Source: Candidatus Levyibacteriota bacterium (lineage in GTDB: Bacteria; Patescibacteriota; Microgenomatia; Levybacterales; UBA12049). From it: DNA of 64,000 nt. Position 1 is the first letter of the stretch; the number at the start of each line of letters is the position of its first letter. Location: contig CAWBPM010000003.1 in NCBI GenBank assembly GCA_963790825.1, positions 317,681 through 381,680 on the forward strand. The letters are read 5' to 3'. Position numbers and translations under genes: made by a program. This document shows, piece by piece, positions 268 through 6,861 of the stretch. The notes beneath the pieces are model-generated. The model worked only from the letters and a program-made list of their open reading frames with translations. It was not told the origin of the DNA and did no database searches.

Positions 268-1029
268 TTAAATACAATTTTTAATAATGCCGTTCTCTTT
301 AAAACTAAAATATTCATCTGAAGTAACTATCAGATGATCTAGTATAGAAATACCCACTAGCTTACCTGCTTCTACAAGTCTATTTGTTGTGGATATATCT
401 TCCTGTGATGGTCTGTAGTCTTCAGATGGATGATTATGAGAAATAATAATCTGTGCGACATTTTCTTTTATAGCTTTTTTAAAAACTTCTCTTGGATGCA
501 CTAAACTGGAATTTAATGTGCCTACGCTAATTTCTTCATTAATTAATTTATTTCGTGTATCAAAATACAGAATAGTAAAGTGTTCTTCTTTTTTACTTCC
601 TATTTTTGATTGAAGGTATTCGGCAACTAACTTAGGAGAATTTAATAAAATTTTAGGAGATATTTTTTCCTTTGAGTATCGTTCGTAAATCGCTTTAAAT
701 AGAATCAATCCCAAAGCACTGGAACGCCCAATTCCCTTAATTGTAATTAGTTCAGTTATGTCTGCATCTAAAGCCCCTTTAAGGTTTTTGAATTTCTTTA
801 TAGCTTCTTTAGCCATGGGTTTACAATCTTTACGAGGTGTACCCAGAGTCAATAGCAATTCGATTATTTCGTAATCCAAAAAACCGTCTAGCCCAGCCTC
901 AATAAATTTTTCTCGAAGTCTTTTCCTATGCCCTTCGGCTGAATTTATTTTTTTGGTAATTAAATCAGAAGAATCGTTACTTTTCATTATTCTCTTGATC
1001 GACATTGAATGAAGCACCGCCAGCGTCAT
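268..1029 (-). CDS. radC: RadC-like JAB-domain protein (UPF0758). The likely true start is the internal Met near 987, because the upstream ORF ends at 977.
   Basis: C-terminal JAB/MPN motif ...IIISHNHPSEDYRPSQEDISTTNRL... (HNHPSG-type). N-terminal helix-hairpin-helix-like region. Overlaps the stop of the upstream DUF2075 gene, suggesting an operon. Confidence 0.8.
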   Translation of the reverse strand: MTLAVLHSMSIKRIMKSNDSSDLITKKINSAEGHRKRLREKFIEAGLDGFLDYEIIELLLTLGTPRKDCKPMAKEAIKKFKNLKGALDADITELITIKGIGRSSALGLILFKAIYERYSKEKISPKILLNSPKLVAEYLQSKIGSKKEEHFTILYFDTRNKLINEEISVGTLNSSLVHPREVFKKAIKENVAQIIISHNHPSEDYRPSQEDISTTNRLVEAGKLVGISILDHLIVTSDEYFSFKENGIIKNCI

Positions 1030-2902
1030 TATCGTATAAAGCAGAATTCATATTTTTGTTGTTTAAATGATTTTTAAAATATTCTTGTGTTTCTCTATCA
1101 ACTGAGTAAATGTAGCATCCCTTCATCCCTCTAGTCATAAGTGTCCTATATGTATTTTTAATAATCGTATCCACCATTATCTTTGCTGATTCTGGATTTT
1201 CTTTAAGCATATTCTTTATTCCTTTTACTGATTGATCTGTAGATGCACGCTTTGTCGCATCTGTAATAATCTTGCCGTTACGGATTATCATATCTGGACC
1301 GATTATTACCCCGACATAATCTAACTCCAATCCTTGAGAAGTGTGGATACAACCTACCTCTTTAACAGAATCAGGATGAATTATCCAAGCCTGACCGTGG
1401 GAGTTCAGATTCCAAGTAGCTTTATAATCTCCGATCACTATATCTTTTAATTCAGTATTATTCTTACTTATCCACTTCCAGCAATAACCGGCTAGTAATC
1501 TTGACTTATTGTTTTTCTGATTTAGGCCAATTATTTTTTCATGAAGAACACTGGGACTGTCTATAACTTTAAAGTCGAAATTAATATCTTCTAATGATTC
1601 ATTCGCCGTTTCTCTTATTTGTAATAGATTATCAATCCAAGCTAGATAACCGTCTGACCCATTACATCTAAACTGAGACTCTAATGTTAAAGATGTAACC
1701 TTTGCGTCAGCGTTTTTTGCCCAATTAATAATTTCCGATTTTTTACCTATATCTTTCAATGTAACTCTTTGATCCTCGTCAATAAAAAAAATACAAAGTT
1801 TGGAAGCATTTATTAACTCTTTTATTTGGTTTTCTCCTAGGTGACTAAATAAACCCGACTTTGCATTAAGTCTATGTGCTTCATCAACAATAAGCGAATC
1901 AAATGTATTAGCTCCGATATCATAAAATGAGCCCGATGAAGTAAATAAATTTGAAATACGGGTCTTTGTAAATTTCCCACTTAGTTTCACTTGGTAGACT
2001 TCTCGAGGTGCTGAATTTTTCGTAACGTATTGTGTTACGTCTCCTCTTTTTGTCAGTTCGGTAAGTAAATTTATCGCAACGACTGATTTTCCTGTACCAG
2101 GCCCTCCTTCCACTATTAGCACATTTTTATTAAAGTCAGACGATTCTTTTGCTAATTCAAGGGCAGTTTCGTATACAATTTTTTGATCGTCAATTAATAT
2201 AAATTCCTTATTGCCCTCAAGCATCGAAGCAAGGTTATCAGCTAATGCCTTAGATGGTCTAATTTTCCCATTCTCAATGTCATACAATATATTTGTTTTG
2301 TCACCAAATTTTACGAATCGTTTTATAAATAGTTGCAGTTTTAAGGCATCAGTTTTTAAAAATACAGGAGCCTTATCTGTGTATTCTTTATAAAAATTGT
2401 TATTAATAATTTCATAGCTGTCATAATTATGTAGGTATGCGCATGGAACTAAAGATATATTATTTTCCTGAACAGTACTGTTAAAGTCTTCTAATAATGT
2501 TGCGTATGACCAAACTTGATATGATGGGTGAGCAACTTCTCCATAAAAAGTTGTATTAAGAACGCCGTCTTTTTCAGATAAACTTACACCATCGCTCCAT
2601 TGTTTCAGCTCTACAATTACTGCTACTTTTCTATTCTCACTATTTGTGCCGGTAATTATAAAATCTATTCTTTTAGATGTTTGTGGAATCTTATATTCAA
2701 TTGCGATACCGGCATCATCGGGGATACTTGAATCGTTAATAACATTACTCATGTAAGGCATAGATTTACGCCATGAATTAATTTCACTTTTACCTGTCGA
2801 ATGTCCCATCTCTCGCACAAATGATGTAAGAATTTGTTGCTCTACTTGTCCAGACAATACATCGCTGAGGAAGTCTTTTTTGTTAGATGAATAAACAATC
2901 AT
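977..2902 (-). CDS. DUF2075-type (Schlafen/Nhi-like) P-loop NTPase with an N-terminal PD-(D/E)xK-like nuclease module
   Basis: N-terminus ...RIDFIITGTNS...VAVIVELKQW (D...ELK restriction-endonuclease-like core). Walker A GGPGTGKS, then DEAHRL (Walker B/DEAD-like). C-terminal GCIHTSQGLELDYVGVII...YRTLMTRGMKGCYIY, typical of DUF2075 helicase-like ATPases. Confidence 0.6.
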   Translation of the reverse strand: MIVYSSNKKDFLSDVLSGQVEQQILTSFVREMGHSTGKSEINSWRKSMPYMSNVINDSSIPDDAGIAIEYKIPQTSKRIDFIITGTNSENRKVAVIVELKQWSDGVSLSEKDGVLNTTFYGEVAHPSYQVWSYATLLEDFNSTVQENNISLVPCAYLHNYDSYEIINNNFYKEYTDKAPVFLKTDALKLQLFIKRFVKFGDKTNILYDIENGKIRPSKALADNLASMLEGNKEFILIDDQKIVYETALELAKESSDFNKNVLIVEGGPGTGKSVVAINLLTELTKRGDVTQYVTKNSAPREVYQVKLSGKFTKTRISNLFTSSGSFYDIGANTFDSLIVDEAHRLNAKSGLFSHLGENQIKELINASKLCIFFIDEDQRVTLKDIGKKSEIINWAKNADAKVTSLTLESQFRCNGSDGYLAWIDNLLQIRETANESLEDINFDFKVIDSPSVLHEKIIGLNQKNNKSRLLAGYCWKWISKNNTELKDIVIGDYKATWNLNSHGQAWIIHPDSVKEVGCIHTSQGLELDYVGVIIGPDMIIRNGKIITDATKRASTDQSVKGIKNMLKENPESAKIMVDTIIKNTYRTLMTRGMKGCYIYSVDRETQEYFKNHLNNKNMNSALYDNDAGGASFNVDQENNEK

Positions 2903-2905
2903 AAA

Positions 2906-3253
2906 TTATAATTCAGTATATTTTGTGTGTTTTCCTTTTGCTTTTTCGACAGGATATTTTTTTTTATTTTTTTTAAGTTTTTTTTCTAAGGCTATTGTAG
3001 GATCAATACTTAAGTCGTGACTAGCGAGTAAAACCCAATACAAAACATCTGCAAGTTCTTCACCAATTGCTTCTCTATTTTTCTTTATATACTCTTCCAT
3101 TTCTTTCTCGTTTTTCCATTGAAAATGTTCCATAAATTCTCCCGCTTCAAGTGAGAGAGATAGCGCAACGTCTTTAGGATTATGAAATTGTTTCCAATTT
3201 CTTGCATCGCGAAATTTTATTATTTTTTCTGTTAATTGTTTTATACTGGACAT
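2906..3253 (-). CDS. MazG-like nucleoside triphosphate pyrophosphohydrolase (all-alpha NTP-PPase)
   Basis: Motifs LSLEAGEFMEHF and GEELADVLYWVLLAS match the EExxE/D metal-binding helices of MazG/dUTPase-like NTP-PPases. Stop is 3 nt from the DUF2075 gene start. Confidence 0.65.
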   Translation of the reverse strand: MSSIKQLTEKIIKFRDARNWKQFHNPKDVALSLSLEAGEFMEHFQWKNEKEMEEYIKKNREAIGEELADVLYWVLLASHDLSIDPTIALEKKLKKNKKKYPVEKAKGKHTKYTEL

Positions 3254-3382
3254 AAATATTAAACCTGATCCGTATTATACGCTTTTTGGGGGAGGTTTGG
3301 AAAATTAACCCGCTATTAACTTTCAACTAATAACCAATAACTTCGTTTCTGTGAGCTTTGAAATCAAGCGGGGTAAAAATTA

Positions 3383-3436: not shown

Positions 3437-4618
3437 ATGGATAATGTCAACTCAGTGCAAATAGGCCGCTATGTCCAACAAAGTCATGGCTATAAAGCCT
3501 TTACTCCTTTTGAATTTCCGCCAAAAGGCGGTTTTATAATCAGCCCAAAATTATACAAAAAGCACGAAGAGGCTATAAGATTAGTCGGTAAATTAGATGG
3601 TATCACCAGACTCCTTCCGGATAAAGATTTTTTTCTGTTAATGTTTATAAAAAAAGATGCCACCTATTCTAGTCAGATTGAGGGTACAAAAGCTACATTG
3701 CAGGATGCAGTAGCTGAGCCAGTTACAGAAGAAAAGTCTCGACGACACCCGGACGTTGATGATATTATCCATTATATTGATGCTTTAAATTATGGCATTG
3801 AAAGAACTAAAACTTTACCAATCTCACTAAGACTTATAAGAGAAATCCACGAGCGATTGATGACTGGTGCACGTTCAACTCAGCATGCATATCCAGGAGA
3901 ATTTCGTCATTCCCAAAACTGGATAGGAGGGAAGACTCCAGCCGATGCTTCATTTGTTCCTCCTGCTCCAGTAGATATGCATAAGTCATTAAATGATCTG
4001 GAAAAATTTATCCATACAATAGATGAATATCCATCTTTAGTAAAAGCAGGACTAATCCATGCACAATTTGAAACAATTCATCCTTTTACAGACGGTAATG
4101 GCAGAACAGGAAGGATGTTAATTGCCATGTATATCCATCATGCCAGACTTTTAGAAATACCAGTTCTATACTTATCTAGCTATTTTAAAAAGTATCAAAA
4201 ACTTTACTACCAAAAACTGCAGGATTATCATGATGAAAATACACAGATGGAAGCCTGGCTGGAGTTTTTTTTGGAAGGTATTGCAGAAATTGCAAATGCT
4301 TCTATAGAAACATGTACAAAAATAACTGTCCTGAGAGACTCAGACTTTGCCAAAATGCAAAAACTTGGGAAAAAATCAGCACAGTCCACTTTGGAAATAA
4401 TCCGTAGATTATTTGGTCAGCCAATTGTGGGAGTTGCGGAAATAATGAAATGGACAGGTTTCAGTCCGCAAGGAGCATATAATGTTATTAAGCGGCTTGA
4501 AGACTTAAAAATTCTGGAACCTCTTGGTGATGCTACGTATGGACAAAAATACATTTATGCTGATTATTATGAAATCTTTGATGATACTTTTAGAGAAGCT
4601 AGGAGAAAAAATACATGA
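3437..4618 (+). CDS. fic: Fic/Doc family protein (AMPylase-type, class II with N-terminal inhibitory helix)
   Basis: Canonical Fic motif HPFTDGNGRTGR. N-terminal Fic_N-like region. Inhibitory S/TxxIEG motif (SSQIEGT). C-terminal winged-helix-like tail. Confidence 0.85.
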   Translation: MDNVNSVQIGRYVQQSHGYKAFTPFEFPPKGGFIISPKLYKKHEEAIRLVGKLDGITRLLPDKDFFLLMFIKKDATYSSQIEGTKATLQDAVAEPVTEEKSRRHPDVDDIIHYIDALNYGIERTKTLPISLRLIREIHERLMTGARSTQHAYPGEFRHSQNWIGGKTPADASFVPPAPVDMHKSLNDLEKFIHTIDEYPSLVKAGLIHAQFETIHPFTDGNGRTGRMLIAMYIHHARLLEIPVLYLSSYFKKYQKLYYQKLQDYHDENTQMEAWLEFFLEGIAEIANASIETCTKITVLRDSDFAKMQKLGKKSAQSTLEIIRRLFGQPIVGVAEIMKWTGFSPQGAYNVIKRLEDLKILEPLGDATYGQKYIYADYYEIFDDTFREARRKNT

Positions 4619-5292
4619 TTAAACTATCAAGATCAAAAATAGAATTACTATTTGATTGTCCAAGATGCTTCTGGCTCTATGCCGGGAAGGGAATAGCAAG
4701 ACCCTTTGGTGCTCCTTATACTATCAATAACGCGGTGGATTTCCTTCTGAAGAAAGAATTTGACGAGCATAGAAAAAATGGAACAGCTCATTGGTTAATA
4801 AAAAGAGAAGGAATAGATGCGATTCCGTTTATGCATGAAGATATCGATAAATGGAGGAATAATTTTACAGGAATTCAATATTACGATGGGGATACAGACT
4901 TTCTTGTTTTTGGTGCAGTAGATGATATTTGGGTTGATTCGAAAGGTAGTTTAATGGTTGTTGATTATAAAGCATCCGGCGCAAAAGAAGGCGAGCTACA
5001 TGACAGCTACAAACGCCAGATGGAGATTTATCAATGGATACTTCGAAAGAACGGTTTCAAGGTATTAAATAGAGGTTATTTTGTTTATTGCCGAGTAAAT
5101 AAAGATAATGGATTCGCAGACGGAAAATTAAGTTTTGACATAAAAGTGCAGCCGTATGACGGAGATGATTCCTGGGTCGAAAAAACTATTAAAGAAGCAA
5201 TTGAGTGCTTAAAGAGTGATAAAATACCTGATCCGGGTCTGGATTGTGATTTTTGTAAATACAGAGAGGCAGTTAGGCAGTTTGAAAAATAA
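4615..5292 (+). CDS. PD-(D/E)xK nuclease, Cas4/RecB-like, with 2+2 cysteines (possible Fe-S cluster)
   Basis: N-terminal CPRCFW. Motif II D (GAVDDIWVD). Motif III VVDYK. QxxxY motif (YKRQMEIYQWIL). C-terminal CDFCKY. Start overlaps the fic stop (ATGA). Confidence 0.6.
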   Translation: MIKLSRSKIELLFDCPRCFWLYAGKGIARPFGAPYTINNAVDFLLKKEFDEHRKNGTAHWLIKREGIDAIPFMHEDIDKWRNNFTGIQYYDGDTDFLVFGAVDDIWVDSKGSLMVVDYKASGAKEGELHDSYKRQMEIYQWILRKNGFKVLNRGYFVYCRVNKDNGFADGKLSFDIKVQPYDGDDSWVEKTIKEAIECLKSDKIPDPGLDCDFCKYREAVRQFEK

Positions 5293-5310
5293 GAAATTAT
5301 AATATAAACA

Positions 5311-6174
5311 ATGCAAAATAACTATACAGCTACAGAAAAAGACTTTAAAGCTATCGAGGAAGGAATACAAACAGTTTGGAGCCCGAAGTTATCATTTATT
5401 TTTAAAGATAAAGATATAATAAGGAATAGCGCAATTGTTGCTTTCGACAGTAAATATATTTACATCTGGACGACAAAAAAACTTGATAATGTAGATAAAA
5501 TTTACTGTTCATTAAAAAACTACTTCGCATATAAATGCCCACATAATATTGACATAGAGAATATTGACCGGATGGGATGGCGGGCCGGAATTTGGCCCCT
5601 TGAGCTAAATAATTTCTTACCACGGGAGCTTAAAAAAAACGATTTTGAAATTCCAAAACCCTGCGGAAGTATGCTTGGGGATTTTATCGTAAACCAAAAA
5701 AAGATCAGAGGAGAAAAAAATAATCCATATATAACTCATGATAGTTACTTAGCTACTATCGTCCACGAATTTGGACATATTTATTACAATCAACACAGAC
5801 TTTGGTGGTATTCAGACAAAACAGAAAATATTGGATATTTGCAGACTGCTTTAAATTTATATCTGGGTAAAAAAACGGGTAAAATTAAAGTCAGAATGCC
5901 ATCACCTACGTTCTTTAATGAAATTTTTGCTTTTTGCTCAGAATATTCTGCCGCAAAGATATTTTGGCAACAGCACAAAGAGAATCTGGATAAATTTGCC
6001 GTAGAATTAATAAAAAATATAATCAAAGAAGAAGAGCAAAAAAATTTAGATAATGAAGATTCCGTATTACAAATAGAAAACGCACACTATGGATCTTTTG
6101 TTTTGGGAAAGATCCTAATAGAAGAATCTCCTGCCTCATGGCCTCAAAAACTGTTACAACAACAAATATTATAA
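5311..6174 (+). CDS. hypothetical protein with HExxH zinc-metallopeptidase-like motif
   Basis: IVHEFGHIYYNQH (HExxH). No other recognisable domain. Third gene of the fic operon, 18-nt gap. Confidence 0.4.
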   Translation: MQNNYTATEKDFKAIEEGIQTVWSPKLSFIFKDKDIIRNSAIVAFDSKYIYIWTTKKLDNVDKIYCSLKNYFAYKCPHNIDIENIDRMGWRAGIWPLELNNFLPRELKKNDFEIPKPCGSMLGDFIVNQKKIRGEKNNPYITHDSYLATIVHEFGHIYYNQHRLWWYSDKTENIGYLQTALNLYLGKKTGKIKVRMPSPTFFNEIFAFCSEYSAAKIFWQQHKENLDKFAVELIKNIIKEEEQKNLDNEDSVLQIENAHYGSFVLGKILIEESPASWPQKLLQQQIL

Positions 6175-6193
6175 GAGTTTTGTTTCTTTTGCC
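6171..6193. repeat. AAGAGTTTTG-family intergenic repeat, copy D (aagagttttgtttcttttgcc)
   Basis: Shares aagagttttgtttcttttg with 12317-12335. The AAGAGTTTTG core also occurs at 8471, 9213 and 9271. Confidence 0.6.
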
Positions 6194-6225
6194 GTGTTCG
6201 CGCAGCTGACTTTTCGTCTCTTTAC

Positions 6226-6861
6226 TTATTGGTTCTTAAGAACCATTTCCCGGATTTGTTGTCGTCTGGGTTTGACATACCAGGTCGTCCAAACAAGTGT
6301 CAGGATTGAAATTGCGGTGAGGATAATCGGTGAAACTACCAGGACTACCGGAGTAGGTAATGAATAAACCATGATAACCCGTAAAATGAACTCGCCGACA
6401 TACGCCACTCCCCAAATGAGCGTTATTAAGCGGAACAGATCAAGTGCGATTTTCATTTGTAAAGATTTGCTAAATCTTTTTCTTTTTTCCGGATCTTTTC
6501 CTGCCACAAATTCACGGGCGAAATAAAACATTAACGGTCTTTTCGTCGGTAATGTTAAAAAACAGGCGATTCCGAGAAATCCGGTAAAGAACGATTCGCG
6601 GATCAGTAAAAGGCGGGGGCTGCCGCCAAGCAAAACTCCGGCAATACTAGTGAGTGTCCCGAGTAGTACTGTCGTCGAAATGACGTTCAGCGTATGATCT
6701 TTCATAAATTCGACTAATGTATCAAAAATTGGATACAGTGATGCCAGACTAAGCGCGATTACTTCTGATGCGGCGAAATATTTTTTAGCAATCGTGTACA
6801 TTGCGAAAGGAATGATGATGTTTAATAGTAAATCTTTTAGTGTATCCCGGAATTTTAGCAT
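6226..6861 (-). CDS. hypothetical integral membrane protein (higher GC than flanks)
   Basis: Multiple hydrophobic helices. No recognised motif. GC about 47% versus about 31% in the adjacent island. Confidence 0.5.
   Translation of the reverse strand: MLKFRDTLKDLLLNIIIPFAMYTIAKKYFAASEVIALSLASLYPIFDTLVEFMKDHTLNVISTTVLLGTLTSIAGVLLGGSPRLLLIRESFFTGFLGIACFLTLPTKRPLMFYFAREFVAGKDPEKRKRFSKSLQMKIALDLFRLITLIWGVAYVGEFILRVIMVYSLPTPVVLVVSPIILTAISILTLVWTTWYVKPRRQQIREMVLKNQ

Follow-up and report, generated by a model that had tools for sequence, protein, structure and literature searches.

What might a compact cassette that strings together a MazG-like gene, a gene of the DUF2075 family and a RadC gene be doing in a bacterial genome, and do all of its genes belong to it equally? 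The cassette in question lies at positions 268 to 3,253 of a 64,000-nucleotide (nt) stretch of DNA from Candidatus Levyibacteriota bacterium (NCBI GenBank assembly GCA_963790825.1, contig CAWBPM010000003.1, positions 317,681 to 381,680 of the forward strand), which was analysed at its full length and is called the window. An earlier note on this DNA had proposed that the three genes form a defence module acting by nucleotide depletion and by a nuclease-helicase, a combination that it did not recognise as a named system. We read the cassette, with roughly an even chance of being right, as a mobile DNA-targeting module of Nhi-like architecture that is partnered by a pyrophosphatase of the dCTP type and regulated by a peptidase-like component, S24 or RadC, which are interchangeable; the module most likely serves defence against foreign DNA. 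Its core is the pair formed by the pyrophosphatase and the nuclease-helicase, and the three genes are not equal partners.

All three genes are read from the minus strand. The first encodes a MazG-like protein of 115 amino acids (aa) (3253..2906, that is coordinates 2906..3253), and its TAA stop is separated by 3 nt (TTT) from the ATG of the second gene, which encodes the 641-aa nuclease-helicase (977..2902, stop codon 977-979 included). The longest open reading frame (ORF) of the third gene, RadC, runs from 1029 to 268 and would give 253 aa. RadC homologues are 230-238 aa long and start at or just past the upstream stop, so the ATG at 987, which has an AGAG 5 nt upstream, is the likelier start. 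The resulting gene (268..987) encodes 239 aa and overlaps the stop of the 641-aa gene by 11 nt (ATGAAAAGTAA). The tight coupling described earlier, a 3-nt gap followed by an overlapping stop/start, is thus borne out by the ORFs.

This coupling is not a chance feature of the window genome, since short or overlapping gaps recur elsewhere. The survey was based on 80 genome loci fetched from many phyla, which encode relatives 56-86% identical to the 641-aa protein. A MazG-like gene stands beside the DUF2075 gene in 67 of them: it lies upstream on the same strand in 65 (directly so in 63, with RadC between the two genes in the other 2) and downstream in 2 more, and across those 65 loci the gap is -4 nt in 21 (the modal value) and 2-3 nt in 13. 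The pair is present in Patescibacteria, Bacteroidota, Desulfobacterota, Verrucomicrobiota, Proteobacteria, Elusimicrobiota and other phyla, on a plasmid of the haloarchaeon Halalkalicoccus (L160) and on a Marivirga plasmid (L157), and the pairing persists in relatives that are only 32-36% identical (L094, L106, L129, L147 and L148). The linkage of these genes is therefore far from unique to the window genome. Its spread is patchy, with at least about 600 stretches matching the search pattern among 185,579 species genomes, and the flanks of the cassette differ in every genome examined; copies also lie on plasmids, and the cassette moves between genomes as a unit. Most plasmid matches are typed as non-mobilizable. 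Carriage by viruses is rare: 2.9 million viral contigs contain only 2 relatives of full length, and of 50,697 phage records 4 match, 3 of them over nearly the full length. A phage origin of the cassette was rejected because the family is too rare in both. One of the odder carriers is PP438423.1 ('Microcystis phage Mwe-JY31', L159), a 22-kb record in which every gene is annotated as hypothetical and which encodes both proteins of the pair, 56% and 50% identical; rather than a typical phage, this may be an element that carries defence genes. Two DUF2075 paralogues, about 34% identical to each other, stand in tandem at L048 (10001-13782); a tandem also occurs on the Marivirga plasmid (L157, 6001-9736), where both copies look degraded.

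What the larger protein of the pair might do is best seen from its two domains. Pfam matches it to PF09848 (SLFN-g3_helicase, formerly DUF2075) at 2e-105 over aa 259-602, and Foldseek matches it in the PDB to RecD2, SLFN11, nsp13, Dna2, Dda and Upf1, which together delimit an SF1B helicase/ATPase core at aa 256-615 (1058..2137, minus strand), followed by a disordered C-terminal tail at aa 616-641 (980..1057, minus strand; predicted local distance difference test score, pLDDT, ~31). The N-terminal region, aa 1-160 (2423..2902, minus strand), is predicted to be a PD-(D/E)xK domain of the restriction-endonuclease fold, with E69, D80, E98 and K100 as the predicted catalytic residues. The alpha-beta-beta-beta-alpha-beta core of that fold appears both in an AlphaFold2 model of the whole protein built from 62 homologues (pLDDT 72) and in a second model of aa 1-256 (predicted template modelling score, pTM, 0.70). 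All the motifs named in the earlier note are present, namely IDFII (aa 79-83), VELK (aa 97-100), Walker A GGPGTGKS (aa 266-273), Walker B DEAHR (aa 340-344) and GxYIY, as GCYIY (aa 595-599). The architecture proposed in the earlier note, an N-terminal PD-(D/E)xK-like core joined to a Walker NTPase with a DUF2075 C-terminus, therefore stands, and the fold predicted for the N-terminal region is that of a nuclease rather than a non-nuclease one.

The nuclease assignment draws on this predicted fold and on conserved residues, because the 641-aa protein had no phmmer match among PDB sequences, and a Pfam scan of aa 1-250 alone at E<=1 gave none either, including none to a Schlafen/AlbA_2 domain. 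The conserved residues come from an alignment of 83 members, among them six relatives only 32-36% identical, in which E69, D80, E98-x-K100, H125 and Q129 are invariant in the nuclease domain, as are Walker A, Walker B (DEAHR), Q378, R412, Q523-G524 and R591 in the helicase. Since the catalytic motifs are invariant, both the nuclease and the helicase activities are predicted to be intact across the family. This family is large, with at least 8000 homologues of the 641-aa protein at E<=1e-10, the nearest of which are from Patescibacteria (Levy-, Davies-, Woese- and Gottesmanbacteria). Members with the N-terminal domain fall into ~1950 clusters at 50% identity, the domain is always N-terminal, and full-length proteins come in two sizes, ~620-650 aa or ~790-815 aa. 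The tail carries a motif, Y-x2-[IV]-x2-G-x-S-[ILV]-N-x-D (in the window, ...YDNDAGGASFNVD), that is conserved in a Patescibacteria clade of at least 68% identity and absent from other clades, which either end before this position or carry an S24 domain there; a role of this motif in docking or processing is conceivable. No pyrophosphatase-helicase fusion was found among seven scanned relatives of atypical length, one of which (P0238, 1068 aa) is fused to a PIF1 helicase instead.

The smaller protein of the pair matches PF12643 (MazG-like) at 9e-18, with 64.7 bits against a gathering cut-off of 27. Its phmmer matches in the PDB are 4qgp, an archaeal pyrophosphatase (4e-20), and mouse/human dCTP pyrophosphatase 1 (DCTPP1; 1.5e-17 over aa 12-115, the C-terminal KYT[DE]L included). 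The ExxE...ExxD metal ligands and the substrate-pocket residues (F/R/W/FH/K) are at least 95% conserved in 94 homologues. Because of this similarity to DCTPP1 and 4QGP and of the conserved metal ligands and pocket, the 115-aa protein is, as judged from its sequence, a DCTPP1-type all-alpha dNTP pyrophosphatase whose enzyme site is intact, and neither a generic MazG nor a degenerate adaptor. With DCTPP1 (RS21-C6) and 4QGP it shares the all-alpha MazG-like fold, the metal ligands, the FQWK motif and the C-terminal KYT[DE]L; whereas DCTPP1 is a stand-alone house-cleaning enzyme, the window gene is translationally coupled to a nuclease-helicase. Mammalian DCTPP1 prefers 5-modified dCTP and, by analogy, the window enzyme would hydrolyse dCTP-type nucleotides, possibly 5-modified ones. 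The earlier note had suggested (d)NTP depletion for a MazG-like protein; given the DCTPP1 type of this enzyme, that is just one role among several that it could have.

How could such a pair work together? The nuclease-helicase would load on target DNA, translocate along it with ATP and cut it, and the pyrophosphatase, acting on dCTP-type nucleotides that may be 5-modified, could (i) starve the invader of the (modified) dCTP that it needs or (ii) keep modified dCMP released by degradation or salvage out of host DNA, thereby sparing the cell's own chromosome from the nuclease. If functional, such a module would equip the Nhi-like class of nuclease-helicase immunity proteins with an accessory enzyme, a pyrophosphatase of the dCTP type, and so couple the breakdown of foreign DNA to nucleotide-pool control.

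Does RadC belong to this pair or is it just a neighbour? The window protein matches PF04002 (RadC) at 1e-43 together with PF20582 (UPF0758_N), that is an HhH-type N-terminal domain and a JAB/JAMM domain, matches PDB 2qlc at 1e-29 and scores above the NCBIfam cut-offs (PRK00024, 217.9 bits against 180, equivalog; 197.8 against 133.85, PRK00024/TIGR00608). It is as full length as canonical RadC (YicR/YsxA), from which its clade (at least 52% identity) differs by travelling with the pyrophosphatase and DUF2075 genes. RadC is found in only six of the 80 genome loci, all Patescibacteria-like. Put the other way round, of 38 metagenome loci with a RadC at least 52% identical, 29 have the pyrophosphatase or DUF2075 gene as well, against 2 of 21 loci with a more distant RadC (p=1e-6), and most of the close-RadC loci among these 38 that show no partner are truncated contigs. 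Among 38 linked RadCs the JAMM motif HNHPS...PS..D is conserved to at least 95%. The genes come in three orders (MazG-DUF2075-RadC, MazG-RadC-DUF2075 and RadC-MazG-DUF2075), and at four loci the DUF2075 protein found with RadC and the pyrophosphatase is from another subfamily, with just 33-36% identity. The trio is also present in four more Patescibacteria genomes, with four unrelated flanks: rpoB in one, GreA in another, genes for GIY-YIG, DUF3800 and PDDEXK proteins in the third, and in the fourth a place between EF-Tu and EF-G beside Bro-N and TIR genes. From the reverse test, the gene orders and the unrelated flanks, RadC is a real third member that is specific to a Patescibacteria clade and moves with the pair; the same three results reject the alternative that it is a mere housekeeping neighbour. 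The three-gene module of the earlier note survives as a recurrent linkage and not as a set of equal partners, since MazG-DUF2075 is the core across phyla and RadC is confined to that clade.

To our knowledge RadC, a near-universal bacterial protein, has been of unknown function for decades in every context, and the Patescibacteria trio provides a defined set of genetic partners that makes the question of its role directly testable. At L156 (4187-13027), in a Patescibacteria genome, the trio and genes for Bro-N, TIR_2, RHH_1 and an exonuclease of RNase H-like type break up the EF-Tu / EF-G-S7-S12 ribosomal gene neighbourhood, which is otherwise conserved. In Andersenbacteria (L082-L085, ~4429-6469) a more distant RadC (41% identical) immediately precedes a PIF1 SF1B helicase gene at a distance of 3 kb from the MazG-DUF2075 pair, and RadC with PIF1 may be a second helicase partnership. 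RadC-like domains fused to DinG helicases are a precedent for pairing RadC with a helicase (PMC11981726).

Relatives outside this clade point to another kind of third component. In 36 of the 80 loci (~45%) the helicase protein is longer and ends in a Peptidase_S24 domain of ~170 aa (PF00717, 27.7-39.4 bits against a cut-off of 23.3), which the window protein does not have. A LexA-like A-G cleavage site, the GxSM serine and the lysine are conserved across these fusions, and site and dyad align to what we take to be A84-G85, S119 and K156 of LexA. The S24 domain is predicted to respond to RecA-single-stranded DNA (ssDNA) filaments, and its presence in so many relatives predicts a RecA-dependent on-switch for the nuclease-helicase. 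The census gives 41 loci with the pyrophosphatase only, 26 with pyrophosphatase and S24, 10 with S24 only and 3 with neither (one of them a pseudogene). Loss of the MazG-like gene is enriched among S24 carriers (10 of 36 against 2 of 43, p=0.009). That the two are mutually exclusive, as the 13 loci without MazG had seemed to say, was rejected, 26 loci having both. RadC-linked nuclease-helicases never carry S24, an observation confounded by phylogeny. The literature searched yielded no description of such a RecA-dependent switch, nor of S24 or RadC variants of the pair.

Within the favoured reading, this third, interchangeable peptidase-like module would tie the enzyme to the status of DNA. In many lineages it would be the C-terminal LexA-type self-cleaving S24 domain, responsive to RecA-ssDNA, and in Patescibacteria a separate RadC with its HhH DNA-binding and JAMM metalloenzyme domains. 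A bolder version, to which we assign a low probability, is a restriction machine gated by DNA status, in which self-cleavage of the LexA-type domain on RecA filaments, or in Patescibacteria the action of RadC on the conserved C-terminal tail, would free the nuclease-helicase, and the DCTPP1-like enzyme would destroy modified dCTP, which would both prevent the synthesis of invader DNA and keep modified bases released by degradation out of the host genome. If true, it would amount to a prokaryotic equivalent of the response of SLFN11 to replication stress, and it would give RadC its first concrete biochemical role.

How new is any of this? The two-gene core is not, having been predicted from defence-island statistics and assayed once without effect; what is new lies in the addition of RadC and S24. 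Table S2 of Millman et al. 2022 contains a candidate named 'Pyrophosphatase', represented by constructs SG192 (Bacillus firmus LK28) and SG193 (B. thuringiensis Lr3/2). SG192, a 98-aa pyrophosphatase with a 643-aa DUF2075 protein, showed no defence ('x') in B. subtilis, and SG193 is listed as 'cloning failed'. By BLASTP, the DUF2075 protein of SG192 is 55% identical to the window 641-aa protein (E 2e-148, over the 399 aa shown) and its pyrophosphatase 47% identical to the 115-aa protein (E 7e-30), which places the window core pair in the same family. In both, two genes encode a nucleotide pyrophosphatase of ~100 aa and a DUF2075 protein of ~640 aa, the difference being that the candidate has neither RadC nor an S24 domain. 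It is an entry in a supplementary table, which does not report a mechanism, name or distribution (Millman et al., 2022), and in the literature search no paper was found that names DUF2075 together with MazG, the link to this candidate running via that table. That the cassette is not a named system therefore holds for the trio and fails for its core.

The architecture is matched best by two single-gene systems. Nhi of S. epidermidis, a proven anti-phage protein, joins an N-terminal PD-(D/E)xK nuclease to a C-terminal SF1 helicase that overlaps DUF2075 (Bari et al., 2022), and Nhi-like of B. cereus FSL H8-0482 is a nuclease-DUF2075 single protein that defends (Millman et al., 2022; 10.1101/2022.05.11.491447) and that phages escape through loss of a DNA methylase (10.1101/2022.08.27.505566). 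The window protein has the same nuclease plus SF1/DUF2075 arrangement in one chain and is distantly related to both in sequence. PADLOC returns partial matches only (PDC-S41 3e-18, AbiO 4e-16 and Nhi 7e-14); for the candidate PDC-S41 (63 bits) the best stretch covers aa 18-290 against positions 15-268 of the 657-position model. Whereas Nhi and Nhi-like act as single genes, the family studied here has the pyrophosphatase almost universally (the 67 loci given above) and commonly a RadC or S24 module. The group III Schlafens (SLFN5/11/13/14) have the PF09848 helicase at their C-terminus, and SLFN11 is among the top structural matches; they differ in their Schlafen/AlbA_2 RNase domain, in place of which the window protein has a PD-(D/E)xK DNase fold at its N-terminus. 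The bacterial Schlafens of 2025-26, defined by that RNase domain, are a different family (PMC13056530). Of the two resemblances drawn in the earlier note, the one to Nhi and Nhi-like thus holds for the architecture and the one to Schlafens stops at the helicase domain. A further parallel with SLFN11, which responds to replication stress, is the LexA-type domain of the relatives.

The company that the module keeps points in the direction of immunity. A census of the 146 immediate neighbours at the 80 loci returned Fic (6), HNH_2 (6), RhuM/PDC-S23 (5), PDC-S05 (5-6), nSTAND3 (3) and DUF2075 paralogues (3) as recurrent, and SauUSI-like PLD-helicase-DUF3427 type IV enzymes are present at 8-9 loci, often directly adjoining. 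In the window itself the cassette divergently adjoins SoFic (PADLOC 1e-104) and a Cas4-like nuclease, in the segment from 1 to 6 kb, where GC is 32-34%; later 2-kb windows are ~33-43%, mostly 35-43%. Neighbours such as Fic/SoFic, SauUSI-like and HNH enzymes, RhuM, TIR and STAND are typical of defence islands. DUF2075 NTPases have been noted beside DUF3427 modification-dependent enzymes (PMC6765204), which agrees with the SauUSI-like neighbours here; the tie to type IV restriction consists of neighbourhood and of analogy with Nhi-like only. A larger cluster recurs at L012 (4566-11526), L045 (9672-15980) and L070 (8511-15031), in which an HNH_2 endonuclease with an N-terminal HKP-LLLA-type domain is followed by the (MazG-like) DUF2075 genes and by a ~1040-aa SauUSI-like PLD-helicase-DUF3427 enzyme, which suggests a composite island aimed at modified DNA. 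A 260-aa membrane-anchored NERD-like protein directly adjoins the module in three unrelated genomes (L036, L050 and L051, e.g. L051 9145-9927).

Several findings weigh against the favoured reading. SG192, the only tested member of the exact family, gave no defence. The PADLOC models of Nhi (aa 232-444, 49 bits) and AbiO match no more than the helicase core, and the validated Nhi-like protein of B. cereus is only 25% identical over 242 aa (E 1e-7). No modified-base reader domain (SRA, PUA/EVE, DUF3427 etc.) was recognised in the 641-aa protein. With at least 56% identity across phyla and 50% on the archaeal plasmid, conservation is higher than one usually sees in defence genes. DNA repair or nucleotide-pool hygiene would suit RadC, a LexA-type domain and a house-cleaning pyrophosphatase equally well. 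A physical complex of the three proteins is hypothetical. Finally, the neighbour census was done without a matched control set, so that it is taken as supportive and not as quantitative. The folds, the conserved catalytic residues, the gene linkage, the mobility as a unit and the neighbourhood are observed, whereas substrates, trigger, complex formation and protection against phage are inferred. A defence role is thus plausible and unproven; the negative published for SG192 may reflect the phage panel of the screen rather than an absent function.

The rival that survives best, unlikely in our view if by no means negligible, is that the cassette is a DNA-repair or nucleotide-hygiene module with no part in immunity. 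Its nuclease-helicase would process damaged or imported DNA, its DCTPP1-like enzyme would clear non-canonical dCTP, and by way of the LexA-type domain or RadC the activity would be linked to DNA damage, or in Patescibacteria to the uptake of DNA and the salvage of nucleotides. The very high conservation across phyla, a full-length RadC above the NCBIfam equivalog cut-off, an S24 domain that keeps all LexA-type catalytic features, the DCTPP1 homology of the small protein, the negative assay of SG192 and the position of the cassette among housekeeping genes in L153 and L155 all fit this view. It sits badly, however, with the patchy distribution, the flanks that differ in each genome examined, the plasmid copies, the low GC of the window segment and the recurrent Fic, type IV restriction, RhuM, TIR and STAND neighbours.

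Quite improbable is a toxin-antitoxin-like or abortive-infection system, in which a self-toxic nuclease-helicase would be restrained by the pyrophosphatase and/or by S24 or RadC, until infection or DNA damage frees it and the cell dies or arrests. Tight translational coupling to a small upstream partner, the cloning failure of SG193, a self-cleaving S24 domain positioned as a possible autoinhibitor, and the toxin-antitoxin and SocA_Panacea genes near the module in some loci are what one would expect of it. Yet a pure antitoxin would not usually keep an enzyme site fully intact, as the small partner does in the 94 homologues, 12 intact loci are entirely without that partner, and SG192 could be cloned with no reported phenotype. 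That the cassette is instead cargo that serves a mobile element, by processing incoming or replicating element DNA or by countering host restriction, is highly improbable, for even though RadC-like JAB proteins are common in such elements, RadC-like domains are fused to DinG and RadC adjoins PIF1, Bro-N, Y1 transposase, RhuM and GIY-YIG genes occur nearby, and there are plasmid copies and one record named as a phage, the family is rare in viral contigs and phage records, most plasmid matches are non-mobilizable and no integrase, tRNA or repeat boundary was found at the window locus (tRNA searches for island edges included).

As for the setting of the cassette, a 183-nt divergent intergenic region is common to the MazG-like gene and SoFic and holds the best sigma-70-like promoter match upstream of the former (3274..3303, minus strand; TTTCCA-18-TATAAT, 10/12 matches). 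The number of promoter-like sites in this region is not above the shuffled expectation, so the candidate promoter is supported by its position alone; a terminator scan likewise gave nothing above the shuffled expectation. On the other side of that region, on the plus strand (3437-5292), the SoFic-type Fic gene overlaps by 4 nt (ATGA) a gene for a 225-aa Cas4-like PD-(D/E)xK nuclease (PF12705, 4e-12). Since SoFic has been described as acting alone in defence, it would be unusual for it to have a nuclease as a coupled partner. L154 also has a PDDEXK_1 gene of 225 aa, 4.5 kb from the cassette. After the Cas4-like gene follows a 287-aa ORF with a weak zincin-like match (5311-6174, plus strand), and the remainder of the window is ordinary chromosome, with SecY, RNase Y and an AddA-like helicase-nuclease. 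Downstream of RadC and past the window start, L001 holds a 275-aa RE_endonuc gene (PF19778, 6594-7421), which together with a 154-aa ORF carries the low-GC island beyond window coordinate 1.

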